Shown here piece by piece: positions 1,079-14,755 of a stretch of 16,169 bases of DNA. Position 1 is the stretch's first letter. Each line of letters begins with the position of its first letter. The stretch is from a virus. Its lineage: Duplodnaviria > Heunggongvirae > Uroviricota > Caudoviricetes. The notes under the pieces were generated by a model that saw only the letters and a list, made by a program, of their open reading frames with translations, had not been told where the DNA came from and ran no database searches. The stretch is taken from the IMG/VR virus record IMGVR_UViG_2540341091_000001, positions 1 to 16,169 of that record; one strand, 5' to 3'. Position numbers and translations under genes: made by a program.

Positions 1079-1348
1079 TTAGTTATATTTTTTTTCCGTT
1101 CTGACTTTTTCCCACTCAGCTCGCCCTTCTTCCCGTCTTTTGTCAATATATTCCGCAAGATCCTGAATGTTGATGCAGCGTTTTGCTTTTTGTGATGTAC
1201 CGATGCGATATGTAGGTACAGGCAACTTACAAGCGTTTGCTTTTGCTTCTGCTGTGGCTGGACTCATACCAAAGTATTTTTGACTAACTGCTGAGAGTTC
1301 AATGTTTGGGGTATTGAATTCAGCCATCAGTAAAAACAAGGTATTCAT
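1079..1348 (-). CDS. PrtN-like (pyocin-activator family) small DNA-binding regulator
   Basis: 89 aa; ATG at 1348 with GGAG 7 nt upstream; segment GMSPATAEAKANACKLPVPTYRIGTSQKAKRCINIQDLAEYIDKRR resembles the PrtN/phage activator family as I recall it. Confidence 0.5.
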   Translation of the reverse strand: MNTLFLLMAEFNTPNIELSAVSQKYFGMSPATAEAKANACKLPVPTYRIGTSQKAKRCINIQDLAEYIDKRREEGRAEWEKVRTEKKYN

Positions 1349-2353: not shown

Positions 2354-3178
2354 TCAGGCGGTGAAAGTACCAATAAAGGTTTCTACTTTGCTGTCTTTGA
2401 ATTTCTCAACAAGCAGATCACGAAATTCGTTAGCCATTTCTTCCTGTACCGCTTCCAGCTGAATAATGCGCAGAACCAGTACAGGACGATCGCCAGTGAT
2501 AATGCTGAGGCGTAATTTAAACGGACGTTCTTTCAGACCTTCAAACGGAGCGCATTTAAATTCAAATGCCACTGGCATAATGTCTTTGGTCTTCGCTTCG
2601 ACAGACTCCATCAGGGAGCGTTTGCCGCTGAAGTCATTATCTTCAAAATCAGCGGTCTGGTTCGCTTCAATTGTGATTTTACGGATCGCCGCAGCCGCTT
2701 TGGTTGCCTGAATGGCGTCACCATTAGCATCAAAGCCCACAAGGTAGTCGGCCCAGTCTTCAATCCATTCTGCCAGTGACTTCTGGGAGTTACGCTCGCC
2801 GTTAACAGACAACAGAGCAGAGAACGGTGCTGTCTTTTTCAGTTTGAGAGTGGCGGTGTTATCTGCGTGACCTGGTTCATCAATAGTACCCAGGTTAAGC
2901 ACACTGACGGCACGCATATTATCGGCATCGATAAAGCAGCGGGTGCCTTCATCTGCAAGAACTTTAGAATAACGGGTAAAGTCATCGATGCTGGCAGTGG
3001 AAAGCGCACCACGGAAACGGAAGCGATTTAAATTAAATTTTTCCAGATCATGAATGCGGAAATTCTCAGGCAATGCCACAGCATCGGCACCAATCTTACT
3101 GATAATTTCATTAACACCCTGAGCAGAAATAAGGGCATGGATTTGATTAATTGCGGTTGCGTCTAAGTTCTGAGACAT
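2354..3178 (-). CDS. phage protein resembling YfdQ (DUF2303 family)
   Basis: 274 aa, the same length as E. coli CPS-53 YfdQ as I remember it; ATG at 3178 with AGGA about 7 nt upstream. Homology not verified. Confidence 0.55.
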
Positions 3179-3242
3179 AATAAGTCCTCACTATATAAAG
3201 ATATTCAGTGATGAGATAAATAATCAGTTTATTAGAACGATA

Positions 3243-3605
3243 TTAACGACCTGCTGCGCGGAGTTTTCCGTCAGGTTCACCGGCAAGAGTCAGTAATTGT
3301 CCCTGGTCCTCCTGCAGAATAGTCAGGCGACCACCGCGATTGACATACATCGGCGTTTCGGTGGTGTCTTCTTCGGAAATTTTCCCGCGGTTAGTCGGGC
3401 GAACATATGAGAGTTTGTGTTTGATTTTCACACGGTTCTCATCAAATGGTTCGATTTCCAGGTTGAGTGAGACCTTACCTTTGGTTTTCGTGTTCATCAC
3501 ACCGGAAGCGACTTCACTGAGAACTGCGCCGATTTTGGTTTCAAATACGCCGCCGTCCAGCTCCCCGATAAATGCCTGCACATCAGTACTGCGTTCGCTA
3601 GCCAT
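3243..3605 (-). CDS. small phage protein (about 120 aa), possibly YfdP-like
   Basis: Internal ATG at 3605 (MASERSTDVQAF...) has a strong GAGGAG Shine-Dalgarno 5-10 nt upstream. The upstream extension in the ORF track (start 3836) runs through structured non-coding DNA and is rejected. Confidence 0.5.
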   Translation of the reverse strand: MASERSTDVQAFIGELDGGVFETKIGAVLSEVASGVMNTKTKGKVSLNLEIEPFDENRVKIKHKLSYVRPTNRGKISEEDTTETPMYVNRGGRLTILQEDQGQLLTLAGEPDGKLRAAGR

Positions 3606-3653
3606 TTTGCTGCTCCTCATCATATCGACCCTGCAAGGTCGGTTGGTTTCTCC

Positions 3654-3787
3654 ACAAAACAGAGAAGAACACCTGCGGTGGCAGCCGCCCGGATGGATTG
3701 GGTTATGAGCCCGTCGTCCGGTGATGCTCTTCTCTGTTTTGTAAAAAGAGCGGTACCAGCCGGAAGCAAGTGTACAAACTGGTACCG
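3654..3787 (-). repeat. two adjacent large inverted repeats (potential RNA stem-loops) in the leader upstream of the 3243-3605 gene
   Basis: Perfect 15-bp inverted repeat ACAAAACAGAGAAGA (3654-3668) / TCTTCTCTGTTTTGT (3728-3742) enclosing 59 nt. Perfect 9-bp inverted repeat CGGTACCAG (3751-3759) / CTGGTACCG (3779-3787) enclosing 19 nt. Confidence 0.4.
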
Positions 3788-4188
3788 CCAAAGCAGTGGC
3801 TGTTGTGGTGGGGTTGTCACTCAGGCGTATGGTCAACCTGACAATCCGGTGTCCTCAACGGGGAAAGAGTAACCCCGCCATACTTACCGCCGCGCCATTT
3901 CGCGGATTACCACAACGCTGAGAGCACTTAGCCAGTTACGGCACCACACTTTGTCGCGGTTCCATAAATGCCCTCATCGTTGCACCCTGGTCTCTTCCCA
4001 GGCGTCAAACCGGATCGCCACGCTGGTTAGGCGTCTTATCAGCATCATCATTGACTTGCACATTCCGGCTACCTGGTTTGTTTGCCCGAGCAAGGAGTGG
4101 ATTGTCCCCTTTAACGTCCCCAGACCGCTAACGACGCATGTGCCATACGCCGTGTTACAACCAAATTTAGTTTAATCTTGCCTGTGTT

Positions 4189-4233
4189 ATGTATCCTATA
4201 GATACATTATGTATCTCAAGGGTACATTGTCAA
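4189..4233 (-). promoter_or_regulatory. pL-like leftward promoter overlapped by two repressor operators
   Basis: Minus strand: TTGACA (plus 4228-4233), 16-bp spacer, CATAAT (plus 4206-4211). Operator-like 17-mers TGTATC-CTATA-GATACA (4190-4206) and TGTATC-TCAAG-GGTACA (4210-4226) share a consensus with the cI-cro intergenic sites. Confidence 0.45.
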
Positions 4234-4235
4234 GT

Positions 4236-4260
4236 ATAAAAAAACCTGCCGAAGCAGGTT
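4236..4260 (-). terminator. intrinsic terminator downstream of the cI-like gene
   Basis: Stem AACCTGC (4243-4249) / GCAGGTT (4254-4260), loop CGAA; the minus strand follows with a T-run (plus A-run 4236-4242). Confidence 0.5.
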
Positions 4261-4271
4261 ATAAATATTGA

Positions 4272-4946
4272 TTAGGCCTTTATTTTGTATCTTCTTGGTT
4301 TTCCTGAGAAAATCACTGTACCAATTATAGAGCAATTACCGTTGATCTTAATGTAAGGTTCAGGCCAGTTTGGGTTTAATGCTTTGAGGTAACGCTGTGT
4401 TCCATCTTCTATCAACCGCTTGAAGGTGGTTTCGCCTGTATCGTGCATCAATGCAATAACGTCGTCACCGTGGCAGGCAGGGACTTCAGGATCAACAAAA
4501 ATCATGTCTCCCGGGCGGTACTCATCAATCATTGAATCACCAATCACCCGCAAGATATAAGTCATTTCGCCACAGGGTACAGGGCAGGGATAAGTTTCTG
4601 CTGTGCTCAAATCAACCTCAGAATAGCCAACTTCTTTCCATGCTCCGGCCTGTACCCATGATATGACAGGGACTAACGTTATTTGTTTGTTAGTGATTGA
4701 AACGTCAGGTTTTTTTGTGATGTTCGTTGTCTGGTGTTCTTGATCAAGCCATCCGACAGGCAGGTCGAAACATTTTTCGATGTGCCGTGCCATGCTGTCA
4801 CCGATATTTTTAGTTGCACCATCTCCCATAAACCTGCTGGTCTGGGTTGGCTCGCGATCAATCATGGTGGCAAAGGAAGAATTCCCGCCAACACCATCTC
4901 TCAGTTTTCTGGCGTTAGACCGCCGGATGTCATGGACTGTTTTCAT
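4272..4946 (-). CDS. cI: cI-like prophage repressor: N-terminal HTH plus C-terminal S24 (LexA-like) autopeptidase domain
   Basis: 224 aa. C-terminal domain has the Ser (VIGDSM) and Lys (TFKRL) typical of S24 self-cleaving repressors. Divergent from a cro-like gene with operators between them. No Shine-Dalgarno before the ATG, consistent with a leaderless pRM-type transcript. Confidence 0.8.
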   Translation of the reverse strand: MKTVHDIRRSNARKLRDGVGGNSSFATMIDREPTQTSRFMGDGATKNIGDSMARHIEKCFDLPVGWLDQEHQTTNITKKPDVSITNKQITLVPVISWVQAGAWKEVGYSEVDLSTAETYPCPVPCGEMTYILRVIGDSMIDEYRPGDMIFVDPEVPACHGDDVIALMHDTGETTFKRLIEDGTQRYLKALNPNWPEPYIKINGNCSIIGTVIFSGKPRRYKIKA

Positions 4947-4963: not shown

Positions 4964-5030
4964 TGTACCGATAAGGTACAAGTATCTTGAAGGTTCATCT
5001 CAATCATGTAATATGTATACCGGAGGTACA
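4964..5030. promoter_or_regulatory. oR-like operator cluster with divergent pRM/pR promoters
   Basis: 17-bp sites TGTACC-GATAA-GGTACA (4964-4980) and TGTATA-CCGGA-GGTACA (5014-5030), plus a degenerate site AGTATC-TTGAA-GGTTCA (4981-4997). Candidate pRM on minus strand TTGTAC-N17-TTTAAT ends about 7 nt before the cI ATG. The 5014-5030 site overlaps the cro RBS. Confidence 0.45.
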
Positions 5031-5036
5031 TGTTGT

Positions 5037-5258
5037 ATGAAAGCGTATTGGGACTCTTTAACCAAAGAACAGCAGGGTGAGTTGGCCGGAAAAGTTGGCT
5101 CAACACCAGGCTACTTACGGCTGGTTTTCAATGGTTATAAAAAAGCCAGTTTTGTGCTGGCTAAAAAACTTGAGCAATGCACGTCAGGTGCAATTACGAA
5201 ATCTGACTTAAGACCGGATATCCCACAGCCAGTATCAGCGATTTGCTGGTTGTGGTGA
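5037..5258 (+). CDS. Cro/YdaS-like small DNA-binding protein
   Basis: 73 aa from ATG 5037 with GGAGG at 5022-5026; HTH-like segment LAGKVGSTPGYLRLVFNGYKKASFVLAKKLEQCTSGAI. The longer track ORF (4734-5258) overlaps cI antisense and is rejected. Confidence 0.6.
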   Translation: MKAYWDSLTKEQQGELAGKVGSTPGYLRLVFNGYKKASFVLAKKLEQCTSGAITKSDLRPDIPQPVSAICWLW

Positions 5259-5313
5259 TGAAGAAATCCACAGCAGGTATCACGATTAGCTGAATTTTCA
5301 TAACCCATATGCG

Positions 5314-5337
5314 GGCGCCATTTCTGGCGCCTTTTTT
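5314..5337 (+). terminator. intrinsic terminator after the cro-like gene
   Basis: Stem GGCGCCA (5314-5320) / TGGCGCC (5325-5331), loop TTTC, then TTTTTT (5332-5337). Confidence 0.55.
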
Positions 5338-5361
5338 ATTGCAGAAAAGCGAGAGGTAATT

Positions 5362-5961
5362 ATGCGTAAACTTTATGCCGCCATTTTGTCCGCAGCCATC
5401 TGTCTGGCCGTATCCGGTGCGCCTGCATGGGCGTCTGAACATCAGTCCACGCTGAGCGCGGGCTATCTTCATGCCTCGACGAACGTTCCCGGCAGCGATG
5501 ATCTGAACGGGATTAACGTGAAATACCGTTATGAGTTTACGGACACACTAGGGCTGGTGACGTCATTCAGCTATGCAGGAGACAAGAATCGCCAGCTGAC
5601 TCATTACAGCGATACCCGCTGGCATGAAGATTCCGTGCGTAACCGCTGGTTCAGCGTGATGGCGGGGCCGTCTGTGCGCGTGAATGAATGGTTCAGCGCG
5701 TATGCGATGGCGGGTGTGGCTTACAGCCGTATTTCGACTTTCTCCGGGGATTATCTCCGCGTAACTGACAACAAGGGGAAAACGCACGAAGTGCTGACCG
5801 GAAGTGATGACGGTCGCCGCAGCAACACGTCTCTGGCGTGGGGGGCTGGCGTGCAGTTTAACCCGACCGTATCCGTGGCCATTGATATTGCTTATGAAGG
5901 CTCCGGCAGTGGCGACTGGCGCACTGACGGTTTCATCGTGGGTGTCGGTTATAAGTTCTGA
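5362..5961 (+). CDS. lom: Lom (Ail/Lom family outer-membrane protein), lambda lom homologue
   Basis: 199 aa with a signal peptide; C-terminus ...AYEGSGSGDWRTDGFIVGVGYKF matches lambda Lom as I remember it; internal INVKYRYE and SVMAGP motifs; RBS GAGAGG at 5351-5356. Confidence 0.85.
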   Translation: MRKLYAAILSAAICLAVSGAPAWASEHQSTLSAGYLHASTNVPGSDDLNGINVKYRYEFTDTLGLVTSFSYAGDKNRQLTHYSDTRWHEDSVRNRWFSVMAGPSVRVNEWFSAYAMAGVAYSRISTFSGDYLRVTDNKGKTHEVLTGSDDGRRSNTSLAWGAGVQFNPTVSVAIDIAYEGSGSGDWRTDGFIVGVGYKF

Positions 5962-5988
5962 TTAGCCAGGTAACACAGTGTTATGACA

Positions 5989-6014
5989 GCCCGCCGGTTC
6001 AGGCGGGCTTTTTT
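5989..6014 (+). terminator. intrinsic terminator between lom and the tail-fibre gene
   Basis: Stem GCCCGCC (5989-5995) / GGCGGGC (6002-6008) followed by TTTTTT (6009-6014). Confidence 0.55.
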
Positions 6015-6025
6015 GTGGGGTGAAT

Positions 6026-9000
6026 ATGGCAGTAAAGATTTCAGGTGTACTGAAAGACGGTGCAGGTAAACCGGTACAGAACTGCACAATCCAGCTGAAA
6101 GCAAAACGTAACAGCACCACGGTGGTGGTGAACACGGTGGCATCTGAAAATCCGGATGAAGCCGGGCGTTACAGCATGGACGTTGAGTACGGTCAGTACA
6201 GCGTTATTCTGTTGGTGGAAGGCTTCCCGCCATCGCATGCCGGGACCATCACCGTGTATGAAGACTCACAACCGGGTACGCTGAATGATTTTCTCGGTGC
6301 CATGACGGAGGATGATGCTCGTCCGGAGGCACTGCGCCGCTTTGAACTGATGGTGGAAGAGGTGGCGCGTAACGCGTCCGCAGTGGCACAGAACACGGCA
6401 GCCGCGAAGAAGTCAGCCAGCGATGCCAGCACATCAGCCCGGGATGCGTCGGCTTCAAAAGAGGCAGCAAAATCATCAGAAATGAGCGCAGCCTCTTCGG
6501 AAACGGCGGCAGGAAATTCCGCGAAGGCCGCAAAAACGTCTGAGACGAATGCGGATAACAGCGCACAGGCGGCAGCGGCCTCACAAACTGCATCGGCAAA
6601 CTACGCGACAGCCGCCAAAAAATCAGAAACCAACGCGAAAAATAGCGAGGCAGCAACAAAGAGCAGTGAAACAAACGCGGCGAAATCTGCGGCGGACGCA
6701 CTTAATTATCGCAACCAGGCGCAATTAATTGTTGGCGATAATATCGGTCTTGGCTCAGCCCCGCGTGATTGTCCTGATATTTCCGGCAACCCATCAGGGT
6801 ATATCGGATTTATGCGCATTATGAGTAATGCAAAAGGCTTTCCATCGATTGCATCCGGTGAAAGCAGTCTTACGGGGTTTATTAGTCAGGTAGATGGAAC
6901 ACCAGCGTATACAGGTGTATTTCAGGGATGGGCTACGCGCTCGCTTTATACTTATCGCTGGAATCCGACAATAGGCCCGCAATGGACACGCCACGCAAGA
7001 AAAGATGAGGTTATCCGATTTCAGCGTTCAAGCGACACAAGAACCATCATTTTATCTACTGACGTTCAGGCGGACGGCTGTTACTTACAGGTTGATGCTG
7101 ACGGTCAGTGGGGCGCATTTAACCCTAAAGCTGGTAGATGGCAACCGCTCGCAGTTGCGCAAGGTGGCACAGGGGCGAATGATGCAAGTACAGCGCGCTC
7201 TAAACTTGAAGTCATGTTTGAAGCAAAAACTGGCCTTGATGCGAATACGAACTTAAACGATATAAAAGGTACTACAGCCGGTTTTTATTACCAACCAATG
7301 TCTGCCAACGCAAAGCCAGAACTAAATTACCCGATACAGCTTGCTGGTGCATTGTTAGTGCAAAGAACTGGTGCTAATGGTAGTGATGGTTGTATCCAGA
7401 GCTATTTTGTATATAACAATTCATCAATTCTTTATAGAAGGATATATACCAGCACACAAGGTTGGAGTGTATGGAAAAAAATAGTATTAACAGAAAGAAT
7501 TGAAGAAGGCGAATCGACTACTTACGTTTATTCGAATTACTCACCATCAGCGCCACGACTTCAGGTGTCAACATCTGGATTGTGGGGTTGCCATAACGGA
7601 TCGTCATGGGTTCCATTACCTATTGGACAAGGAGGCACTAATGCGGCAACTGTTGATGGTGCCAGAACGAATCTTGGCTTAGGTAGGAACAACAGCCCTC
7701 AACTTAACAGTCTATTTCTTGATAGATATAGTGATTCGACCAATACATACACATCTAGTGGAATTCTCCATACAAGACTGTTAGCAACTGACAGCACTGT
7801 GCGTCTTGGTGCTGATATGTATGTTGAGACTTTATCAAATGAGCCAGGTCAATTAACAATAAGGTTTACATACGATGGTTCAACTGGTGCTTCAAAATAT
7901 CTAAACCTTAACTCAGAAGGTAATTTAATTGTAGATAGTGCGATACTGAGATCAACGGTTGAAAAACCTTTACAAATAAGGAGCGCTAACCCAGCAATAA
8001 GATTTAATGAAACAGATCGCCCGGCTAACACGCCTACTTATACTCTCATTGCTAATGCTGGTGACTGGTTTATTCAGAAACGCGATTATGATGATGCCGG
8101 AAGCGTTAGTAACGCAATTGCATATAATTTCGCAAACGACAGAATTGATGTGCAAAATCTTAAAGCGTCTGGGTTAATTACAGCTAACTCAGGAATCGCA
8201 ACATTAACAGGTCATGACTGGAACGCTCAGCATACTGATAACGTCGACAAATTTAGACCAATTGCAGGCAGTACAAACGGCCCGGCAGGCTCTATGGTTC
8301 TTGGCGGCATTCATGTTCAATTTAGTAAAAATTATGCTGTGCAGTTCGGAGGCCGCAATTCCGGTTTTTGGGGAAGAACAATTGAAAATGGAACGACGCA
8401 GGAATGGAAGAAATTACTAACAGTAGACGATCTCAATTCATCTACCGATCTTGCTGTCAGGTCATTAACCACATCTAACCCGGTAAAATCTGGCGGAGGG
8501 CGAATTGATGTCCTTGGAAGCACGTCAGACTATAGCAAAATGGATTGCTTTGTACGTGGGTTTGATAGCACCGGTAATTCTCTCGCGTGGGCGTTGGGTT
8601 CATCAGTCGGCGTAAGTAAGATGCTGTCGCTAAAAAATTTCTTTAGCGGAGCTGAGATACTGCTAAATGGTAATGACGGCGCGGTTCAACTCAAAACAGG
8701 TGCTGTTAACGGTGCTAAAGCGCAGGCGCTCACTATCAACAAGGATGAGGTTAACTCAACTGTTGATTTAACTCTTACAAAACAAACAGGGACTGGCAAT
8801 CGTTTTGTTTTACAGAACTTAGGTAATACAGAACTACCATTTGCTGTCAAGGTGTGGGGTTCAGGTGATCGACAAAACGTTTTTGAGGTTGGAACGTCTG
8901 CCGCGTATCTGTTTTATGCTCAAAAAACATCGTCAGGTCAGCTGTTTGATGTAAACGGTGCTATTAACTGTACAACACTGAATCAGTTATCAGACCGCGA

Positions 9001-9367
9001 GCTGAAAGACAATATTCAGATTATCAGTGACGCAACCGAAGCTATCCGTAAAATGAACGGGTACACCTACACACTTAAGGAAAACGGACTGCCTTACGCT
9101 GGTGTTATTGCACAGGAAGCAATGGAGGCAATACCGGAAGCGGTAGGCTCATTCACTCATTACGGTAAAGAGTTGCAGGGACCAACGGTTGACGGCAATG
9201 AATTACGTGAAGAAACACGTTATCTGAATGTTGACTACGCCGCCGTGACGGGCTTACTTGTTCAGGTCGCCCGTGAAACAGATGATCGCGTTACCGCGCT
9301 GGAAGAAGAAAACGCAGAATTAAAACAAAGATTATCTGCAATTGAGGCGGCGCTTGCCTCTAAATAA
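6026..9367 (+). CDS. stf: side tail fibre: lambda Stf-like N-terminus, divergent central/distal region, C-terminal intramolecular-chaperone (peptidase S74-like) domain
   Basis: N-terminus MAVKISGVLKDG...GRYSMDVEYGQYSV...HAGTITVYEDSQPGTLNDFL is near-identical to lambda Stf as I recall it. Real ATG is 6026 (the track begins at a GTG at 6020). C-terminal 125 aa (SDRELKDNI...TALEEENAELKQRL) resemble the self-cleaving chaperone domain of endosialidase-type fibres. Confidence 0.85.
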   Translation: MAVKISGVLKDGAGKPVQNCTIQLKAKRNSTTVVVNTVASENPDEAGRYSMDVEYGQYSVILLVEGFPPSHAGTITVYEDSQPGTLNDFLGAMTEDDARPEALRRFELMVEEVARNASAVAQNTAAAKKSASDASTSARDASASKEAAKSSEMSAASSETAAGNSAKAAKTSETNADNSAQAAAASQTASANYATAAKKSETNAKNSEAATKSSETNAAKSAADALNYRNQAQLIVGDNIGLGSAPRDCPDISGNPSGYIGFMRIMSNAKGFPSIASGESSLTGFISQVDGTPAYTGVFQGWATRSLYTYRWNPTIGPQWTRHARKDEVIRFQRSSDTRTIILSTDVQADGCYLQVDADGQWGAFNPKAGRWQPLAVAQGGTGANDASTARSKLEVMFEAKTGLDANTNLNDIKGTTAGFYYQPMSANAKPELNYPIQLAGALLVQRTGANGSDGCIQSYFVYNNSSILYRRIYTSTQGWSVWKKIVLTERIEEGESTTYVYSNYSPSAPRLQVSTSGLWGCHNGSSWVPLPIGQGGTNAATVDGARTNLGLGRNNSPQLNSLFLDRYSDSTNTYTSSGILHTRLLATDSTVRLGADMYVETLSNEPGQLTIRFTYDGSTGASKYLNLNSEGNLIVDSAILRSTVEKPLQIRSANPAIRFNETDRPANTPTYTLIANAGDWFIQKRDYDDAGSVSNAIAYNFANDRIDVQNLKASGLITANSGIATLTGHDWNAQHTDNVDKFRPIAGSTNGPAGSMVLGGIHVQFSKNYAVQFGGRNSGFWGRTIENGTTQEWKKLLTVDDLNSSTDLAVRSLTTSNPVKSGGGRIDVLGSTSDYSKMDCFVRGFDSTGNSLAWALGSSVGVSKMLSLKNFFSGAEILLNGNDGAVQLKTGAVNGAKAQALTINKDEVNSTVDLTLTKQTGTGNRFVLQNLGNTELPFAVKVWGSGDRQNVFEVGTSAAYLFYAQKTSSGQLFDVNGAINCTTLNQLSDRELKDNIQIISDATEAIRKMNGYTYTLKENGLPYAGVIAQEAMEAIPEAVGSFTHYGKELQGPTVDGNELREETRYLNVDYAAVTGLLVQVARETDDRVTALEEENAELKQRLSAIEAALASK
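6380..6710 (+). repeat. in-frame Ala/Ser/Thr-rich tandem peptide repeats within stf
   Basis: Translation shows repeated units such as AAKTSETNADNS, AAKKSETNAKNS, ATKSSETNAAKS, as in lambda Stf. Confidence 0.4.
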
Positions 9368-9804: not shown

Positions 9805-10668
9805 CTATGATATTCCTGAAATATCCTCTTCAAGCTCTTTTACTGATTTCGCAATTTTAAATTTAAACTTCCTCTCTATTTCACTATTGCTAAGTTTTTT
9901 TTCCTTCTCTTTACCTATCCACATAGAAACAAGTTCTCGTTTCTGAGATATATGTAGATTGTCAAAGTTAGGTATGTATTTAAAAGTCTCCGCTCTACCT
10001 CTGCGGAGTTCATAGAAAGTTTTAATCAAAGATTTTGGTTTTATTTCTGATGAAAGGCCGAATCGGCGGATAAGATTATTGATAGTATGATTAACAGAGC
10101 GAAGTTGAGCTGTTGAGGTTATTTGTGAGAAGTACGATACCCATCCCAATCGTTTACCTTCAAACACACATCCCGTAATTCTGAGATTTAGTTTCCACTG
10201 ACAATATGCAACAGCTCGTTCTTTATCACGCTTACTTTTAGCTTGTAGTAGAGCGTGCCTATATGCAGTAAAAATTTTTGCTAAGGATGACTCAAATCTA
10301 AGAATGCTCTCATGTTTTATCAATAATTCTCGATTTTCTATGTGGTATCCCAAAAAGTTAAAACTTTCATCCAAACTGCCTACTTTGGATTTTGAGTTCT
10401 CTTCATTTAATGGATGTGGGTTTAAATTTAATGATTGAAGCTTATCAATGATATGAGAAGCTATTTTTGTTGCTTGATATTTTGGTGTTAAAATAAGAAT
10501 GTCATCAACGTATCGCATGTACCATATGTCATGCATTTTATTGATTTCATCATCGAAATTAGATAGTGATATTTCAGCTAAAATGTTTGATATCGCTAAT
10601 CCCTGAGGTACTCCTCTGGTATTATTAGGGATACCTTTGCTTCCTGTGGTTCCACTTACAGTAGGCAC
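9805..10668 (-). CDS. reverse transcriptase, C-terminal segment (motifs 3-7 and a 170-aa C-terminal extension); in the -1 frame relative to the N-terminal segment
   Basis: Translation has GVPQGLAISNILAEI (motif 3/4), YMRYVDDILIL (the YxDD active site) and FNFLGYHI (motif 7). The track start is a GTG; this frame is open upstream to a TAG at 10708-10710, so it spans the A6G site of the upstream segment. Confidence 0.8.
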   Translation of the reverse strand: MPTVSGTTGSKGIPNNTRGVPQGLAISNILAEISLSNFDDEINKMHDIWYMRYVDDILILTPKYQATKIASHIIDKLQSLNLNPHPLNEENSKSKVGSLDESFNFLGYHIENRELLIKHESILRFESSLAKIFTAYRHALLQAKSKRDKERAVAYCQWKLNLRITGCVFEGKRLGWVSYFSQITSTAQLRSVNHTINNLIRRFGLSSEIKPKSLIKTFYELRRGRAETFKYIPNFDNLHISQKRELVSMWIGKEKEKKLSNSEIERKFKFKIAKSVKELEEDISGIS

Positions 10669-10685
10669 GATTAATGATGATGTTA

Positions 10686-11174
10686 TTAACTGTCTAATTT
10701 CTTTTTTCTAATTTTATTTTTTATTGCATTAATTATCAATTTATGTTCAATTGAAGGATAGAAACTTTTAAGATCTATTTTTGCATATTCAGCATATAGA
10801 CTGTTGTTTAATGCTTCTTTCAATGAGTCAATTACTGTATGTGGTAGTTTTAATCTGGACTTAGGATATATTTCCGTAAGGCATTCACAGAGAGCTCTAA
10901 GAGTAATTCTGTCCCTAGCAGTTGGTATGGAAATCTGTCTGGGTGTAGAGTTAGCGCCTTTAGATATTAATTTTTCTTTATATGCTGTAAATTTGTAATT
11001 GCCAGAATTAACCTTTTCAAAAATGAAAGTGATCTCATTTTTTATTGTCAAATCAAGTTTTGATGGGCGAATCCGATCTATGCCAATCGCTCCTGATTCT
11101 TTGATTTTTTCAGAGTATACTTTTAGAAGATTTTTTTTCGAGAATGACTTTTTAAAAATTCTGCTTGCAGTCAT
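10686..11174 (-). CDS. reverse transcriptase, N-terminal segment (fingers, motifs 1-2); frame ends 15 nt after an A_AAA_AAG heptamer
   Basis: ATG at 11174 (the track begins at a TTG at 11180). Motifs GIDRIRPSKL, PRQISIPTARDRITLRAL and AKIDLKSFYPSI. Start overlaps the 3' end of the upstream membrane-protein gene by 23 nt. Confidence 0.75.
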   Translation of the reverse strand: MTASRIFKKSFSKKNLLKVYSEKIKESGAIGIDRIRPSKLDLTIKNEITFIFEKVNSGNYKFTAYKEKLISKGANSTPRQISIPTARDRITLRALCECLTEIYPKSRLKLPHTVIDSLKEALNNSLYAEYAKIDLKSFYPSIEHKLIINAIKNKIRKKKLDS

Positions 11175-11703
11175 AGTCAATCCAAAGATATATTAATGGG
11201 AGTATATAAAGTGCGGCAGTAATAAATATTCGAAGTAATATCCATAAAATAACAATTATTTTTTCTTTTTGTGTGGGGATCCTCGTCTTAAGTCCAACTT
11301 GAGTTACCCTTGAAATTTTATCATCTATGTCACGGTGATTCTCAACCTCATTGAGCAAATTAAAATATTTTTCTTTCTGTTCAAGAGATAACTGTTGACT
11401 GGTGGTAATGTCAAAATAGAGTCGCTGTAGTGCAATATAATTCCTTCTCATGGCTATTGCTCGACCACGAAAATCTAGGTTAGATACGATCAGAGAAATA
11501 CCCAGTAGAGCCACTGAAAGTATCGCCGCAACGACATCTGTATTATCTCCTAGAACCTTTGGAAATCGCAACGTTACAATTGAAAGTACCGCACTCAATA
11601 TAGCATACCAAACGAGGATAAATTGAGAGTGTTTTTCAAGCCATTCTAGTCGATGGTGCGCTTGGATACGTGCTTTATATGTAAACCAAATATTGTCATG
11701 CAT
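11152..11703 (-). CDS. multi-pass membrane protein (two N-terminal TM helices plus a C-terminal hydrophobic helix), possibly SLATT-like; candidate effector partner of the RT
   Basis: 183 aa; hydrophobic segments FILVWYAILSAVLSIVTL, VVAAILSVALLGISLIVS and IIVILWILLRIFITAALYILPLIYLW around a charged helical middle. Translationally coupled to the RT. SLATT assignment is an unverified guess from architecture. Confidence 0.6.
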   Translation of the reverse strand: MHDNIWFTYKARIQAHHRLEWLEKHSQFILVWYAILSAVLSIVTLRFPKVLGDNTDVVAAILSVALLGISLIVSNLDFRGRAIAMRRNYIALQRLYFDITTSQQLSLEQKEKYFNLLNEVENHRDIDDKISRVTQVGLKTRIPTQKEKIIVILWILLRIFITAALYILPLIYLWIDYDCKQNF

Positions 11704-12015: not shown

Positions 12016-12381
12016 ATGATTGATGTCTTAGGGCCGGAGAAACGCAGACGGCGTACCACACAGGAAAAGATCGCAATTGTTCAGCAGAGCTTTGAACCGG
12101 GGATGACGGTCTCCCTCGTTGCCCGGCAACATGGTGTAGCAGCCAGCCAGTTATTTCTCTGGCGTAAGCAATACCAGGAAGGAAGTCTTACTGCTGTCGC
12201 CGCCGGAGAACAGGTTGTTCCTGCCTCTGAACTTGCTGCCGCCATGAAGCAGATTAAAGAACTCCAGCGCCTGCTCGGCAAGAAAACGATGGAAAATGAA
12301 CTCCTCAAAGAAGCCGTTGAATATGGACGGGCAAAAAAGTGGATAGCGCACGCGCCCTTATTGCCCGGGGATGGGGAGTAA
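12016..12381 (+). CDS. insC: IS2 transposase OrfA (InsC)
   Basis: [41 protein letters not shown]... is the IS2 InsC sequence; ATG 12016 with GGAG at 12007-12010. The track ORF from 11971 is an upstream extension. Confidence 0.9.
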
Positions 12382-13244
12382 GCTTAGTCAGCCGTTGTCT
12401 CCGGGTGTCGCGTGCGCAGTTGCACGTCATTCTCAGACGAACCGATGACTGGATGGATGGCCGCCGCAGTCGTCACACTGATGATACGGATGTGCTTCTC
12501 CGTATACACCATGTTATCGGAGAGCTGCCCACGTATGGTTATCGTCGGGTATGGGCGCTGCTTCGCAGACAGGCAGAACTTGATGGTATGCCTGCGATCA
12601 ATGCCAAACGTGTTTACCGGATCATGCGCCAGAATGCGCTGTTGCTTGAGCGAAAACCTGCTGTACCGCCATCGAAACGGGCACATACAGGCAGAGTGGC
12701 CGTGAAAGAAAGCAATCAGCGATGGTGCTCTGACGGGTTCGAGTTCTGCTGTGATAACGGAGAGAGACTGCGTGTCACGTTCGCGCTGGACTGCTGTGAT
12801 CGTGAGGCACTGCACTGGGCGGTCACTACCGGCGGCTTCAACAGTGAAACAGTACAGGACGTCATGCTGGGAGCGGTGGAACGCCGCTTCGGCAACGATC
12901 TTCCGTCGTCTCCAGTGGAGTGGCTGACGGATAATGGTTCATGCTACCGGGCTAATGAAACACGCCAGTTCGCCCGGATGTTGGGACTTGAACCGAAGAA
13001 CACGGCGGTGCGGAGTCCGGAGAGTAACGGAATAGCAGAGAGCTTCGTGAAAACGATAAAGCGTGACTACATCAGTATCATGCCCAAACCAGACGGGTTA
13101 ACGGCAGCAAAGAACCTTGCAGAGGCGTTCGAGCATTATAACGAATGGCATCCGCATAGTGCGCTGGGTTATCGCTCGCCACGGGAATATCTGCGGCAGC
13201 GGGCTTGTAATGGGTTAAGTGATAACAGATGTCTGGAAATATAG
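12339..13244 (+). CDS. insD: IS2 transposase OrfB (InsD), normally made as an OrfAB fusion by -1 frameshift at A6G (12333-12339)
   Basis: 301-aa DDE-type integrase-fold protein matching IS2 InsD; slippery A_AAA_AAG at 12333-12339 lies in the orfA/orfB overlap. Confidence 0.9.
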
Positions 13245-13260
13245 GGGCAAATCCATGAAC

Positions 13261-13509
13261 TTAATGAACAAACCACTCGTCAGCAGACTCCCAGGTATCT
13301 TTCAGAGTCTCCTGAACAAAAGTTTTAGCTGAATCTTTATCAGCGGTGCGCGTAACAGAAAGGCCATCGTTGCTGGTGGCTTTTACGATCACTTCTACAT
13401 CGTCATAACGTTTACTGATGCGTCGGGTTAATTCTTCCTTTAACGCATCCACAGCACCGGTTGGCATTTTAGTCATTTTTTCTTTGGCTATGCAGATTTC
13501 AATACGCAT
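13261..13509 (-). CDS. dinI: DinI-like SOS-inducible protein (prophage-borne)
   Basis: 82 aa [37 protein letters not shown]...[11 protein letters not shown] resembles DinI; GGGGA Shine-Dalgarno 5 nt upstream; LexA boxes immediately upstream. Confidence 0.8.
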
Positions 13510-13523
13510 AAAAGTCCCCTACA

Positions 13524-13567
13524 CTGTATTTGTATACAGTATTATTTTTAACTGTATGGATAAACAG
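13524..13567 (-). promoter_or_regulatory. two tandem LexA (SOS) boxes in the dinI-like promoter region
   Basis: CTGTATTTGTATACAG (13524-13539) and CTGTATGGATAAACAG (13552-13567) both fit CTGT-N8-ACAG; the first, with flanks, is near-palindromic ACTGTAT...ATACAGTA. Confidence 0.7.
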
Positions 13568-13569
13568 TG

Positions 13570-14667
13570 TCAAGAGGTCTTATTTCTGCTCCTTTGGAGT
13601 TCTTCAAAACGATTATGTAAAGATTTCGGATACAGTTCGGTATATACCTGCCATAGCACGTTTAATGAACGATGCCCTGTAACCTGAGCGACTTCCTCAA
13701 TACTAAAACCAGCCTCAAATAAGCGACTTGCCCCTTCTCTACGCAAATCATGGTATCTCAGATCTTTAATACCTAATTTGCTTCTTACCCTCTGAAATCC
13801 TGCGGTAACAGAAGTGCTGTTATATGGAAAAATGAATTCTGATTTTTTGGGTTGTCGCTGGACGATATCCCAGGCTTCCCCAAGCAAGGCAACTTTCATA
13901 TGGTTGCCTTCCTTTTTACGTGGATCTTTCCTGTCTCTTACTAGTATAGATTTTTGTTCCTGGTCGAGATCTTCCCATCGTAACCGGCATACTTCTCCGA
14001 TTCGCATACAGGACCACACAGAAAATTTGAGGATATCAACGAACGGAATTTTTGAGCATTTATGAGTAGATCGTTGTTGAAGGCCTTCAATGAGCATGTT
14101 CAGTTCATCAGATGCTGGTCTACGATTACGACGGTTTGATTTACCAATCAAACCGAGTTTAAGTAGATATGGACGAGCGCTTTTCGCCGGGTTTGATGTG
14201 TAATTGATTCCGTATACAGGTTTTGCCGCATCCAGAACACTGCCAAGATAACTAACATCGTGGCTGACTGTTGCTGGGCCTGCACCAGCGTTGTTTCTTA
14301 GCCTGCAATGTTCAATTACGTCATTTTCTGTCAGTTCAGATAGTTTGATCGCGGAGATGTCACTATCCATAAGCAGTTCCAGCACATATCTTTTAGTACG
14401 GCCTGCTTTACCTCCGGCATTTGGGTCATTTAAATATTTGTGTAGTAAGTCACGGACTGTAAGTCCGTCAACAGCATTTGATGATGGAATGCCATATAGA
14501 TCTAATTCCATCACTTTCTGTGCGCCCCATGTTTTGGCATGAGCATGTTTAGGGAATGTTTTGCTTTCCCTGTAAGTGATAACACCTTTTTCTTTGATAA
14601 TCACATTACAGCGATAGCGTGGTGTGCCATCGGATTTTAGTCGTTTCTCTATGTTATAGTACGCCAT
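13570..14667 (-). CDS. int: tyrosine recombinase / phage integrase, dusA-associated type
   Basis: 365 aa; C-terminal catalytic region with RYHDLRREG, HRS and conserved Tyr (WQVYTELY). Divergent from and directly adjacent to the 5' end of dusA. GAGG Shine-Dalgarno 7 nt upstream of ATG 14667. Confidence 0.9.
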   Translation of the reverse strand: MAYYNIEKRLKSDGTPRYRCNVIIKEKGVITYRESKTFPKHAHAKTWGAQKVMELDLYGIPSSNAVDGLTVRDLLHKYLNDPNAGGKAGRTKRYVLELLMDSDISAIKLSELTENDVIEHCRLRNNAGAGPATVSHDVSYLGSVLDAAKPVYGINYTSNPAKSARPYLLKLGLIGKSNRRNRRPASDELNMLIEGLQQRSTHKCSKIPFVDILKFSVWSCMRIGEVCRLRWEDLDQEQKSILVRDRKDPRKKEGNHMKVALLGEAWDIVQRQPKKSEFIFPYNSTSVTAGFQRVRSKLGIKDLRYHDLRREGASRLFEAGFSIEEVAQVTGHRSLNVLWQVYTELYPKSLHNRFEELQRSRNKTS

Positions 14668-14755
14668 TACACGACCTCGTTATTTCGGGTTCCCATAAAG
14701 CGTGGGAACCTGTGCGGGAACCTAACGCGAGAAAAATAGCCTGAAATGTTCAAAA

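Follow-up and report, generated by a model that had tools for sequence, protein, structure and literature searches.

Four conserved RNA modules are predicted in the early-left leader of a lambdoid phage and include a pseudoknotted element absent from Rfam 15

What occupies the ∼600 bp between the pL-like promoter and the first early-left gene of this lambdoid phage, where no credible gene is found? The window analyzed here is the whole 16,169-nucleotide stretch of the virus record IMGVR_UViG_2540341091_000001, and the leader in question spans positions 3606–4198. A sequence-only reading had described a protein-free, GC-rich and highly structured leader of ∼600 bp. Its extent is borne out, except that the first gene starts at position 3605 and not at 3606, and its GC content is indeed high (53.1% versus 44.4% in the whole window). 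The leader is framed by the following features.

4272–4946, minus strand: cI-like repressor gene (Peptidase_S24), directly upstream of pL
4260–4243, minus strand: terminator of the cI-like gene, between that gene and pL
4206–4233, minus strand: pL-like sigma-70 promoter with −35 TTGACA (4233–4228), 16-nt spacer and −10 CATAAT (4211–4206); 11 of 12 matches
4190–4226, no strand: two OL operator palindromes, TGTATCCTATAGATACA at 4190–4206 and TGTATCTCAAGGGTACA at 4210–4226, overlapping the −10 hexamer
3243–3605, minus strand: yfdP-like gene (120 aa), the first early-left gene
2354–3178, minus strand: yfdQ-like DUF2303 gene, next after the yfdP-like gene

The pL-like promoter is the sole promoter-like site on the minus strand from 4233 to 3606, and transcription would start near position 4199. 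The operator pattern of OL recurs at OR (4964–4980 and 5014–5030), and the pR operon of the prophage is truncated after cro. The yfdP/yfdQ gene pair also follows the leader in ST64B, SfV and mEp460. No ORF between pL and yfdP has a family match that would mark an N-like gene, and ARAGORN finds no tRNA or tmRNA in the window.

The minus-strand leader RNA folds with a minimum free energy of −233.9 kcal/mol, compared with −196.5 ± 7.0 kcal/mol for shuffled sequences (z −5.4), in agreement with the structured character ascribed to it. The perfect 15-bp inverted repeat reported earlier at 3654–3668 / 3728–3742 forms the core of a 25-nt pair (3654–3678 / 3718–3742) with 84% complementarity. The second repeat, described as 9 bp long, was correctly located but comprises 10 perfect base pairs (3750–3759 / 3779–3788). 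Both repeats had been judged unlikely to arise by chance, which holds for the longer one only: the longest perfect inverted repeat in 200 shuffled leaders never exceeds 12 bp, and a perfect repeat of at least 10 bp is seen in nine of the 200. The 15-mer is far beyond chance; the 10-mer would be marginal by itself, and its conservation is all that rescues it. The largest and most conserved part of the leader, termed element C, lies outside both repeats and was missed in the sequence-only reading.

As read from the sequence, the leader is a mosaic of four separate, conserved RNA modules that would be transcribed leftward from the pL-like promoter. Their parts are as follows.

3986–4152, minus strand: element C core, with H1 (loop AUGGCACAU), H2 enclosing a variable arm, a variable hairpin, H4 and H5 (loop GAAGAGA)
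Within the element C core, minus strand: pseudoknot PK1, in which the H1 loop GCACAU would pair with AUGUGC
Within the element C core, minus strand: pseudoknot PK2, in which the H4 loop RACC would pair with GGUK
3917–3985, minus strand: element C 3′ domain, with the long helix P6 (CGAUGAGGGCAUUUA with UAAGUGCUCUCAGCG, ∼17 bp) capping a variable insert
3802–3916, minus strand: module B, a structured domain closed by GUUGUGGU/ACCACAAC
3743–3801, minus strand: DicF-slot small-RNA body, with a single-stranded tail AGCCACUGCUUU, a 10–13-bp GC-rich hairpin (3779–3788 / 3750–3759), a 19-nt loop and the U-run UCUUUUU (3749–3743)
3654–3742, minus strand: long hairpin, with a 20-bp stem (3742–3723 with 3654–3673) and a conserved three-way apex CGACGGGCUCAUAACCCAAUCCAUCCGG; it contains the 15-bp repeat
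3606–3653, minus strand: proximal 5′ UTR of the yfdP-like gene, with a small hairpin (3624–3643) and the Shine–Dalgarno sequence GAGGAG (3613–3618), 7 nt before the AUG at 3605

Because of their G-U pairs, all helices are specific to the minus-strand RNA. Phages differ in which segments of the leader they share. Some part of it occurs in 4737 of 5426 complete E. coli genomes and at least 80% of it in 1099, and at least 1099 of the 5426 carry element C within a near-full-length leader. A 100% identical sequence is present in E. coli AR434. The modules are independently mobile, and every one of them shows purifying selection together with compensatory changes.

Element C (∼4186–3917) is modeled as an RNA of ∼270 nt in which five helices covary and two pseudoknots form. 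In an alignment of 34 non-redundant homologues (A4), 97.5% of the cells are paired and 12 pairs exhibit compensatory changes; none of 500 shuffles reaches the real value, and slid controls are 28–47% paired. In H1, pair 10–26 is G-U, G-C or C-G and pair 12–24 is G-C or A-U. In PK2, pair 132–152 is C-G in 28 sequences and A-U in six. Covariation supports the five helices and PK2. A fold from RNAalifold, in which GCACAU and AUGUGC form an ordinary nested helix that replaces H1, was rejected because H1 covaries and the competing U26–G95 pair breaks. Over 43 distinct versions, many of them compensatory variants, the P6 duplex has an energy of −21.8 kcal/mol, versus −14.9 kcal/mol with its 3′ strand shuffled. 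A lambda-type nut site, in which a single-stranded boxA is followed by a boxB hairpin and serves N, is not seen: the only boxA-like string, UGCUCUC, is the paired 3′ strand of P6 and is lost in compensatory variants. The 3′ domain ends at a conserved junction, ...CAGC/GUUGUGG (3917/3916). The region 4186–3910 is conserved across 94 distinct variants of element C, in which ∼60 invariant nucleotides cluster in the junctions and the two pseudoknots while the peripheral hairpins vary. The idea that element C is a CsrA sponge was abandoned, as it contains just two invariant GGA motifs. In a check for Rho-utilization signals, the C/G ratio is below 1 throughout element C and 1.2–1.7 over 3874–3700.

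A covariance model of element C has a single match in the window (3956–4174, minus strand; 178.6 bits). In the sequences searched with this model, which were those fetched by exact-word patterns, each locus gives one strong match (144–190 bits), and scores elsewhere are at most 10.5 bits. The 4227 families of Rfam 15, including GOLLD, ROOL, riboswitches, ribozymes, C4 and tRNA, have no match in the window at gathering thresholds and give chance-level hits at E 1–10; in the homologous leaders of P1, phiV10-like phages, mEp390, ST64B, SfV and Flotzy, Rfam detects tRNAs only. A literature search for the invariant strings of element C produced no match in main texts, the strings are absent from the supplements of Tree et al. 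(2014), and a search of the literature on the P1 ban leader and on phiV10/SPN1S RNAs yielded nothing on element C. Element C is uncatalogued, with no description found in Rfam 15 or the searched literature.

Element C is found in three unrelated contexts, comprising 78 lambdoid early-left loci (3′ of a cI-type repressor gene and/or 5′ of yfdP/yfdQ-type genes), 22 loci upstream of P1 ban and 45 loci in the portal–terminase gap of Uetakevirus, and among the sequences searched it ranges over 12 genera of Enterobacterales. Many N-less lambdoid prophages have it immediately downstream of the early promoter. In those lambdoid and Uetakevirus loci that were read, it lies within ∼10–80 nt of the predicted start, a promoter-proximal position that is also expected of a cis-acting element. 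Depending on the locus, element C is followed by a tRNA, module B, the 5′ module of the small RNA sRNA-17 or the ban ribosome-binding site. In phiV10-like (epsilon15-like) phages, tRNA-Arg(UCU) begins exactly at the element C junction, and in P1, tRNA-Ile2 is located 20–25 nt upstream of H1; these abutting tRNA genes argue that the ends of element C are processing sites. Neither the present window nor the other lambdoid loci show an adjoining tRNA. In P1, where the trnI–ban spacer measures 285 nt, the ban start codon comes after element C with no terminator annotated between them, and in both P1 and Uetakevirus, element C occurs without a downstream small RNA.

Over 107 nt, module B is ∼93% identical to the K-12 Qin sequence that immediately precedes DicF and forms the 5′ part of a 190-nt DicF precursor. 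The P1 ban operon has module B as well, 5′ of the annotated 'dicF-like region'. In alignment A6, its structure is 95.9% paired and eight pairs show double changes; an internal pseudoknot is only weakly supported. Northern blots and primer extension of the Qin precursor revealed two species, one of 190 nt that depends on RNase III and one of 53 nt that depends on RNase E (PMC10448788). The 5′ end of the 190-nt species is a processing product, and no internal promoter was found (PMC10448788). The GUUGUGG junction precedes module B in Qin as well, at the mapped RNase III-dependent 5′ end of the 190-nt species, and module B of the window starts at this same motif at position 3916.

The hairpin that follows module B (ΔG −21.2 kcal/mol, z −3.8) takes the location of DicF in an alignment with the K-12 ydfC–dicB spacer. 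In the slot after module B, which was located in 139 places, the 40 commonest sequences contain a hairpin and a U-run, and the tail and loop are hypervariable. The hairpin is predicted to be an intrinsic terminator; the terminator scanner gave no call for it because its loop exceeds 8 nt. As in Qin (Rfam RF00039; Faubladier 1990; PMC5069750; PMC10448788), the locus belongs to a repressor-controlled early operon of a lambdoid prophage, and the same slot holds a terminator hairpin with a U-run ahead of downstream genes. The hairpin itself, however, has another sequence. The Rfam DicF model (RF00039, threshold 48 bits) has no match in 3500–4350 even at E values up to 10, and the same search finds K-12 DicF at 76.7 bits. 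The window lacks the DicF 5′ arm UUUCUGGUGAC and the loop ACUCC, which pairs with the ftsZ ribosome-binding site, and keeps only AGUUU. Pairing of the present hairpin with ftsZ was rejected because its RNAduplex score is no better than those of shuffles and the Shine–Dalgarno-complementary ACUCC is lost. The surroundings also differ: the array here is preceded by element C, comes before any ORF and leads to yfdP/yfdQ, whereas the Qin array comes after ydfABC and leads to dicB.

The 3′ part of the predicted small RNA has a counterpart in sRNA-17, a 193-nt RNA from an mEp460-like prophage of E. coli K1 RS218 whose ends were mapped by RACE and which was detected on Northern blots (Sun et al. 2020, PMC7719688). 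The string caccacaacagccactgctttggcggtaccagtttgtacacttgcttccggctggtaccgc in the published sRNA-17 alignment (PMC7719688) corresponds to 3809–3750 of the window on the minus strand. The sRNA-17 sequence was reconstructed from the supplementary alignment of that paper and the loci of the present analysis. The span from GUUGUGG to UCUUUU is 193 nt in sRNA-17-type loci, and in the published alignment the rows of full length stop at the junction (PMC7719688). The sRNA-17 locus shares with the window the order cI, pL, element C, small RNA, long hairpin and yfdP, a 5′ end at the same junction motif, and identical 3′ 55 nt including the hairpin and U-run. At least 20 loci contain element C followed by the sRNA-17 5′ module, the same hairpin and the same long hairpin. 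The two differ in the 5′ two-thirds, where sRNA-17 has another module (GUUGUGGUGAAUGCGCAGGC...); its 5′ 134-nt domain (GUUGUGGUGAAUGCGCAGGCUGAUGCGCG...) is not in the window, and module B of the Qin type stands in its place. By combining a Qin-type module B with an sRNA-17 3′ end, the window is a recombinant of two small-RNA types. The sequence-only reading had listed an sRNA among its options, and this option is supported for the part with the 9/10-bp repeat, given a hairpin and U-run in the DicF slot and a 3′ end identical to that of sRNA-17. Element C, the relation to DicF and the modular structure were not noticed in the sRNA-17 publication.

The long hairpin (ΔG −51.2 kcal/mol, z −7.8) also precedes yfdP-like genes in ST64B, SfV and Flotzy, where it is conserved. 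In alignment A7, its stem is 98.5% paired and four pairs exhibit compensatory changes, including G-C to C-G flips, and its G-U pairs occur on the minus-strand RNA only. The small hairpin at 3624–3643 is no better than shuffles (z +0.4). The early-left RNA of phage lambda contains RNase III sites in the N leader and in sib. Like these, the long hairpin is a long perfect duplex in the pL transcript near the ribosome-binding site of an early gene; unlike them, it has a conserved three-way apex, and it is a candidate RNase III site.

Could the repeats instead be sites in DNA, such as extra operators for looping, or could the region conceal a gene for a small protein or an N-gene relic? The GTAC-containing motifs of the DicF-slot hairpin look like operator half-sites, and the earlier reading had related GGTACC/TGTACA to the operator and envisaged extra repressor sites. 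However, the pattern TGTAYC-N5-GRTACA is confined to OL and OR, the leader has no match to it at two or fewer mismatches, and phages with other repressors and of other immunity types have the same hairpin. For a hidden gene, mechanical ORFs of 64–77 codons with GTG or TTG starts exist (3620–3820, minus strand; 3678–3872 and 3951–4175, plus strand), which makes the earlier mention of only 25–30-codon frames inexact; the yfdP frame is open back to 3836, and CDSs are annotated within the leader in the Ayreon and cdtI phage records. The leader ORFs have no Pfam match, and no reading frame is conserved across element C homologues: the inter-motif distances are not multiples of 3, and an invariant 19-mer falls in three different frames. 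Coding on the opposite strand was also rejected, as a stop-free frame exists in 21 of the 34 homologues but differs between them. The absence of a convincing ORF is thus upheld, and the hypothetical proteins annotated inside the leader in phage records are probably spurious. An N-gene relic conflicts with the purifying selection and compensatory changes seen in all modules. Covariance analysis across relatives, which the sequence-only reading had suggested, reveals RNA-type covariation in element C, module B and the long hairpin. With such covariation in all modules, DNA-level sites, a concealed gene and a relic are together extremely improbable, and a noncoding, structured region that is functional at the RNA level is supported.

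We favor, with moderate confidence, a model in which the leader is a polycistronic noncoding transcript that is cut at conserved junctions into stable RNAs, the terminator of the small RNA also attenuates early-left transcription, and element C acts in trans. The model draws on the structures, homologies, modular mosaic and genomic contexts described above and on the literature on homologues, namely on the DicF species of 190 and 53 nt, which depend on RNase III and RNase E, and on the 193-nt sRNA-17, whose ends are mapped. On these grounds we infer where transcription starts, how this phage processes its transcript, what the terminator and long hairpin do, and that element C acts in trans. 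When the cI-like repressor leaves OL, RNA polymerase would start near 4199 and proceed leftward through four RNA modules before the first gene. A cut at CAGC/GUUGUGG (3917/3916), just past P6, would free element C from module B, by analogy with the equivalent Qin site, where RNase III is documented. Module B and the terminator hairpin (3916 to ∼3744, 173 nt) would constitute a small RNA of the DicF/sRNA-17 type, with a 5′ end generated by processing and a 3′ end set by the intrinsic terminator that it carries. Hfq binding and target pairing probably involve the hairpin, the U-tail and the variable single-stranded tail, and RNase E may trim the 173-nt RNA further, as with DicF. The DicF-slot terminator would also limit transcription into the early-left genes. 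Read-through transcripts would carry the 20-bp hairpin (3742–3654) in the yfdP 5′ UTR, most likely as a double-strand-specific (RNase III-type) processing or stability element. Element C would be released as a stable RNA whose invariant pseudoknotted core acts in trans on a factor conserved across Enterobacteriaceae, and it is not thought to act on the polymerase that made it.

The put RNA of phage HK022 consists of two stem-loops in ∼70 nt, with one copy after each early promoter (pL and pR), and reportedly needs a tether to the polymerase. Element C might resemble put in function, as a cis-acting processive antiterminator that is bound to polymerase and replaces the missing N; polymerase would then pass the DicF-slot terminator, the long hairpin and later early-left terminators. 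As with put in HK022 and HK639, a promoter-proximal structured RNA is located in the early operon of an N-less lambdoid phage with terminators downstream. No N-like gene intervenes between pL and the first gene, and element C is the first element transcribed from pL in the lambdoid loci read (10–60 nt past the predicted start) and is promoter-proximal in the Uetakevirus cassette too. A terminator hairpin lies less than 200 nt downstream of element C, the 99.5% identical phage Ayreon has a further annotated early-left terminator, and others have suggested that lambdoid phages related to 2H10, which lack N, use RNA of the put type (PMC12315714). The architecture, however, departs from that of put: element C is 3–4 times larger, folds with two pseudoknots and five or more helices, has processing sites and tRNAs at its flanks, and is shared by P1 and epsilon15-like phages. 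In the HK022 nun–cI region, which contains the putL site, blastn with the leader finds nothing better than E 0.4 and the element C model has no match. The window holds one copy and none between pR and the post-cro terminator, the pR operon being truncated after cro. A probable RNase III stem ends element C, and tRNAs adjoin it (after it in phiV10-like phages, before it in P1), so that processing would cut the tether that put needs; moreover, P1 has no annotated terminator between element C and the ban start codon. Membership of the put family, as raised in the earlier reading, fails on sequence similarity, architecture and copy number, and a put-like function is regarded as unlikely.

The concentration of invariant nucleotides in junctions and pseudoknots, with a variable periphery, is typical of aptamers and ribozymes, and element C is located in a 5′ leader exactly at processing junctions. 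It could thus be a sensor, such as a riboswitch-like aptamer that sets downstream processing or termination through a fold controlled by its ligand, or a self-cleaving ribozyme that frees neighboring tRNAs and sRNAs. We give this reading a small chance because none of the 4227 Rfam families matches, including the known riboswitch and ribozyme classes, no consistent expression platform is present downstream of element C, and the cut at the equivalent Qin junction needs RNase III and not RNA alone. The 5′ end of the small RNA offers another point of dispute. The authors of the sRNA-17 study assigned it to transcription from an own ArcA-controlled promoter and detected the RNA in uninduced stationary-phase lysogens (PMC7719688). 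Applied here, the B-plus-hairpin sRNA would have its own promoter in the 3′ part of element C, and the 'C' DNA would be mainly regulatory (ArcA sites and a promoter). The upstream fragment binds ArcA and expression in the lysogen varies with oxygen and growth phase (PMC7719688), in agreement with such a promoter, and expression in uninduced lysogens fits poorly with strict pL dependence, an objection that is tempered by the spontaneous firing of the Qin dicB promoter in a subpopulation of cells. Nevertheless, the minus strand has no sigma-70-like site from 4190 to 3606, and selection has acted on an RNA fold rather than on protein-binding DNA, as the compensatory changes, the two pseudoknots and the strand-specific G-U pairs show. 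Element C lacks a downstream small RNA in P1 and Uetakevirus, and the homologous Qin 5′ end is a processing product. An own promoter is accordingly considered very unlikely. The ideas of an own promoter and of polycistronic processing are not fully exclusive.

Among other known RNAs, GOLLD and ROOL (PMC12286853; PMC5737381) are likewise ornate, pseudoknotted RNAs of phages and prophages with no associated protein. They often lie beside tRNA genes, as element C does in P1 and phiV10-like phages. They are 580–800 nt long, whereas element C is ∼170–270 nt, has no Rfam match and occurs in Enterobacteriaceae rather than in Firmicutes or in marine or rumen samples; the window itself has no tRNA. The anti-sRNAs AsxR and AgvB of EHEC (Tree et al. 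2014, PMC4104026) resemble the DicF-slot RNA as short prophage sRNA families at fixed positions, in which a conserved terminator scaffold is combined with 5′ pairing regions that vary. They differ in sequence and in their location downstream of pR′.

Qin DicF, the P1 'dicF-like region' and sRNA-17, which comes from neonatal-meningitis E. coli, are forms of a single modular small-RNA locus. A constant scaffold bearing a hypervariable tail and loop suggests that sRNA seeds are varied by prophages through cassette exchange, and since sRNA-17 is linked to growth in blood and invasion, such seed diversification bears on virulence. A wider proposal is put forward tentatively: element C may represent a new functional RNA class of P1-like, epsilon15-like and N-less lambdoid phages (including Stx2c and cdt phages) whose core has its own biochemical activity, and early noncoding transcripts may be built from interchangeable RNA cassettes. 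If so, the activity could be modification of RNA polymerase in place of N, ligand sensing, cleavage at the junction or sequestration of a host factor, and the cassettes (element C, module B, the sRNA-17 5′ module, tRNAs and variable seed hairpins) would be joined at a common GUUGUGG junction. Element C is found both in the model phage P1 and in toxin-converting prophages. The leader suggests an early-transcription plan for N-less lambdoid phages in which the first 600 nt of the early-left transcript are given over to RNAs and a terminator precedes the genes, and how these phages pass their early terminators becomes directly testable.

The window is a lambdoid prophage. Its positions 3550–4300 are 99.5% identical to Escherichia phage Ayreon; for phage cdtI and several Stx2c-converting phages, identity is 98–99%. 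The promoter and gene layout defines the gene-free stretch as a ~590-nt early-left (pL) leader, for which the minus strand is relevant. Two operator palindromes overlap the pL-like promoter, and a yfdQ-like DUF2303 gene lies downstream of the yfdP-like ORF. From 5' to 3', the leader RNA modules are element C, module B, a hairpin in the DicF slot and a long hairpin.

Features of the early-left region
4272–4946, minus strand: cI-like repressor gene (Peptidase_S24)
4260–4243, minus strand: terminator of the repressor gene
−35 at 4233–4228 and −10 at 4211–4206, minus strand: sigma-70 promoter (11/12), directly downstream of the terminator of the cI-like gene
~4186–3917, minus strand: element C
3243–3605, minus strand: yfdP-like ORF, the next gene after the promoter

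Outside the leader, the early-left region encodes a small PrtN-like protein of the pyocin activator family (1079–1348, minus strand). An Ail/Lom outer-membrane protein gene (5362–5961) stands right after cro and a strong terminator (5313–5342, plus strand), with a tail-fibre gene of 1115 aa (6020–9367) beyond it. The prophage appears deleted or rearranged, since no genes for replication, Q, lysis, head or tail are present in this context (5258–9367). The cluster at 12339–15793, with an IS3-family transposase (12339–13244), a tyrosine integrase (13570–14667, minus strand) and a Dus-family gene (14756–15793), suggests integration at a dusA-type site; because the integrase is on the 'wrong' side relative to the pL operon, two elements may lie in tandem. 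An apparent retron-type defence module (9805–11703, minus strand) contains a SLATT_5 two-transmembrane effector (11152–11703) followed by a reverse transcriptase split into two ORFs (N-terminal half, 10686–11180; C-terminal half, 9805–10668), a split that points to a frameshift or to gene inactivation. Rfam found no msr/msd RNA at this module.

The leader contains both inverted repeats described in a sequence-only reading. The longer repeat is 15 bp, as described, and exceeds chance (0 of 200 shuffles; maximum, 12), whereas the shorter one spans 10 bp rather than 9, a length reached or exceeded in 9 of 200 shuffles. The leader is GC-rich (53% versus 44% in the window) and highly structured, with an RNA fold 5.4 standard deviations better than shuffles, as that reading had held. 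Its count of only 25- to 30-codon frames was too low: mechanical ORFs of up to 77 codons are found with GTG or TTG starts, some of which the Ayreon and cdtI records list as hypothetical proteins. The leader ORFs have no match in Pfam. Across 34 homologues of element C, the spacings of invariant motifs show no preference among the three residues modulo 3, and an invariant 19-mer is read in three different frames. The region is therefore noncoding, as proposed, and a hidden gene is rejected. Hypothetical-protein CDSs inside the RNA modules of loci L001 (Ayreon; 6129–6323 and 6425–6544), L002 (cdtI; 3868–4323) and L128 (mEp390; 1839–2081) are probably false gene calls. Extra operators for repressor looping were also suggested, but no operator-pattern match lies inside the leader, and this role is rejected.

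Conservation of element C spans ~4186 to 3910. Searches with an invariant 24-mer yielded at least 120 IMG/VR contigs, and those with the 19-mer yielded 24 stretches from a one-genome-per-species collection, with diversity biased to close relatives by the exact-word patterns used for fetching. Named Enterobacterales species from 12 genera account for 22 of the 24 stretches; one is a true copy in a MAG labelled Bacillota, which is probably misbinned. The remaining match, in an Oscillospiraceae MAG, is due to chance. The structure of element C was derived from 34 non-redundant sequences.

Helices of element C
H1: hairpin with the invariant loop AUGGCACAU
H2: helix closing a variable arm
Variable hairpin: between H2 and H4
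H4: hairpin with the loop RACC
H5: hairpin with the loop GAAGAGA

In the alignment, 97.5% of cells are in standard pairs, with both-sided changes at 12 pairs. This level was reached by 0 of 500 shuffles, and slid registers are only 28–47% paired. G-U pairs tie the fold to the transcribed strand. The H4 loop RACC pairs with GGUK to form pseudoknot PK2; at its variable pair, 28 sequences have C-G and the other 6 have A-U, without exception. The H1 loop GCACAU is complementary to an invariant AUGUGC, a putative pseudoknot (PK1) that cannot covary because both sides are invariant. In the window, the 3' helix P6 has ~17 bp; it caps an insert variable in length and sequence and is kept through many compensatory variants. 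In L126 (SPN1S), L091, L094 and related loci, this insert carries the tRNA T-arm-like sequence CUGGUUCAAUUCCAG; it looks like an embedded tRNA fragment or tRNA-like domain and recalls the tRNAs embedded in GOLLD. Searched with a covariance model of the element C alignment, the window yields a single copy (3956–4174, 178.6 bits), and HK022, ST64B, SfV, Flotzy and Qin yield none. Element C matches no Rfam family, and its conserved strings are absent from the searched literature.

Module B follows the junction at 3917/3916. Window positions 3810–3916 are ~93% identical to the sequence directly 5' of DicF in the ydfC–dicB spacer of K-12 Qin. The polycistronic dicBF RNA of Qin yields a 190-nt species with an RNase III-dependent 5' end, and the 53-nt DicF is an RNase E product (PMC10448788). 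The 5' end of the 190-nt species lies at the motif CCGGUUGUGG, the same junction that ends element C in the window. Qin (L125, ~3110–3200) lacks the element C core but retains, upstream of module B, both the junction and a P6-like helix (AAGCGCA...UGCGCUU), so the processing stem is a module in its own right. A further GUGAUGCGGUGAAUGCGGC module begins after DicF in Qin. The fold of module B is 95.9% paired, with double changes at 8 pairs; an internal pseudoknot is weakly supported.

At the DicF position, the window holds CUGCUUUGGCGGUACCAGUUUGUACACUUGCUUCCGGCUGGUACCGCUCUUUUU, a −21 kcal/mol hairpin (z-score, −3.8) that corresponds to the shorter inverted repeat and is followed by a U-run. It is not DicF by Rfam criteria and, unlike DicF, lacks the 5' arm and the loop pairing with the ftsZ ribosome-binding site. 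Among 139 module B places, the 40 commonest downstream sequences all contain a terminator hairpin with hypervariable tail and loop, and the slot holds canonical DicF, the window's version, a P1 version, an ST64B version or others. In P1, module B and the slot hairpin occupy the annotated 'dicF-like region' of the same ban operon as element C. Separate from that region, the C–ban spacer of P1 (L003, ~2900–2960) contains UUUUCUGGUGAUGAC, a near-match to the DicF 5' arm UUUCUGGUGACG.

A related published small RNA is sRNA-17, which an mEp460-like prophage of E. coli K1 RS218 encodes. RACE at both the 5' and 3' ends and Northern blots defined it as a 193-nt RNA that is higher in stationary phase and repressed by ArcA (PMC7719688). 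The tail-plus-hairpin sequence of the window appears verbatim in the supplementary sRNA-17 alignment (PMC7719688), whose full-length rows end at the same GUUGUGG as the sRNA-17 loci. In the analysed loci, full sRNA-17 runs from GUUGUGGUGAAUGCG... to ...CCGCUCUUUU (193 nt), and in at least 20 loci it sits between element C, which it directly follows, and the same long hairpin. Given the shared hairpin, junction and order, the leader represents the sRNA-17 locus with its 5' module exchanged for a Qin-type module B. One stem, GUUGUGGU/ACCACAAC, closes either module. The small RNA predicted in the window covers 3916–3744 (173 nt). Both modules begin with GUGGU and finish with ACCAC (window 3916 and 3802–3809; L088, L008 and others), matching the first acceptor-stem bases of tRNA-Arg(UCU) (GUGGCAU...AUGCCAC), which takes the same slot in phiV10-like phages (L004, 2504). 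They may mimic a pre-tRNA acceptor stem or have been exchanged by recombination at shared sequence.

A 20-bp stem (3742–3723 with 3654–3673) topped by a three-way apex is built around the 15-bp repeat (−51 kcal/mol; z-score, −7.8). ST64B, SfV, Flotzy and many prophages keep this long hairpin in front of their yfdP-like genes. Its stem is 98.5% paired, with both partners changed at four pairs, G-C to C-G flips among them, and the apex CGACGGGCUCAUWACCCAAUCCAYCCGG is nearly invariant. The uninterrupted 20-bp duplex, 45 nt before the ribosome-binding site, resembles an RNase III site and is a putative one.

The leader is a mosaic, detected by sensitive blastn search, in which separate phages share separate pieces.

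Shared pieces of the leader
3606–3810: common to SfV, SfII and mEp460
3794–3916: common to many prophages and an Actinobacillus phage
3910–4153: common to phiV10, TL-2011b and O157 typing phage 10, and partly to P1, P7 and SPN1S

At least one piece occurs in 4737 of 5426 complete E. coli genomes, and at least 80% of the leader in 1099; RefSeq annotates nothing under the leader matches in these genomes. The slot hairpin and module B are known elements (DicF precursor and sRNA-17) in a new arrangement. In the literature and databases searched, we found no earlier description of element C, of the long hairpin as a conserved unit or of a cassette grammar in which modules share a GUUGUGG junction.

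Among 153 occurrences of element C, three settings are seen. In lambdoid early-left regions (78), it follows a cI-type repressor gene, precedes yfdP/yfdQ-type genes or does both, with a predicted promoter only 10–60 nt before its start in the loci read. In P1-like elements (22), it lies upstream of ban. In Uetakevirus (45), it is flanked by the portal and large-terminase genes but encoded antisense to them, shortly after a promoter with a probable palindromic operator. The TTGACA promoter before the cassette overlaps the palindrome TTACCTnnnAGGTAA, probably an operator, in L004 (2835–2870), L126, L146 and L149. tRNA-Ile2 lies 20–25 nt upstream of H1 in P1, and tRNA-Arg(UCU) starts exactly at the C-ending junction in phiV10-like phages; from these adjoining tRNAs, we infer that the boundaries of element C are RNA-processing sites.

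Derepression of pL would produce a single transcript containing element C, module B, the slot hairpin, the long hairpin and the yfdP mRNA. A cut at P6 and the junction would free element C and create the 5' end of the small RNA composed of module B and the hairpin. The intrinsic terminator of the small RNA would set its 3' end and attenuate transcription into the genes, and read-through RNA would be processed or stabilised at the 20-bp hairpin. Production of the small RNA from an internal ArcA-controlled promoter, as proposed for sRNA-17, is very improbable, since a promoter-like site is absent and the upstream sequence shows RNA-type covariation.

A put-like cis antiterminator would suit a promoter-proximal element in a phage without N. 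However, element C shares nothing with the put region of HK022, is present only once and would be cut loose from polymerase if processed as its flanks imply, which makes this role unlikely. The conservation pattern agrees with a riboswitch or ribozyme, but we consider this quite unlikely given that no consistent expression platform is present and the homologous cut in Qin requires RNase III. By context, the closest analogues of element C are GOLLD and ROOL, large phage RNAs near tRNA islands whose function is unknown (PMC12286853). A role of element C in trans is favoured because processing sites and tRNAs bound it, because it moves as a cassette among unrelated phages and because its single-stranded and pseudoknot nucleotides do not vary among the 12 genera of hosts.
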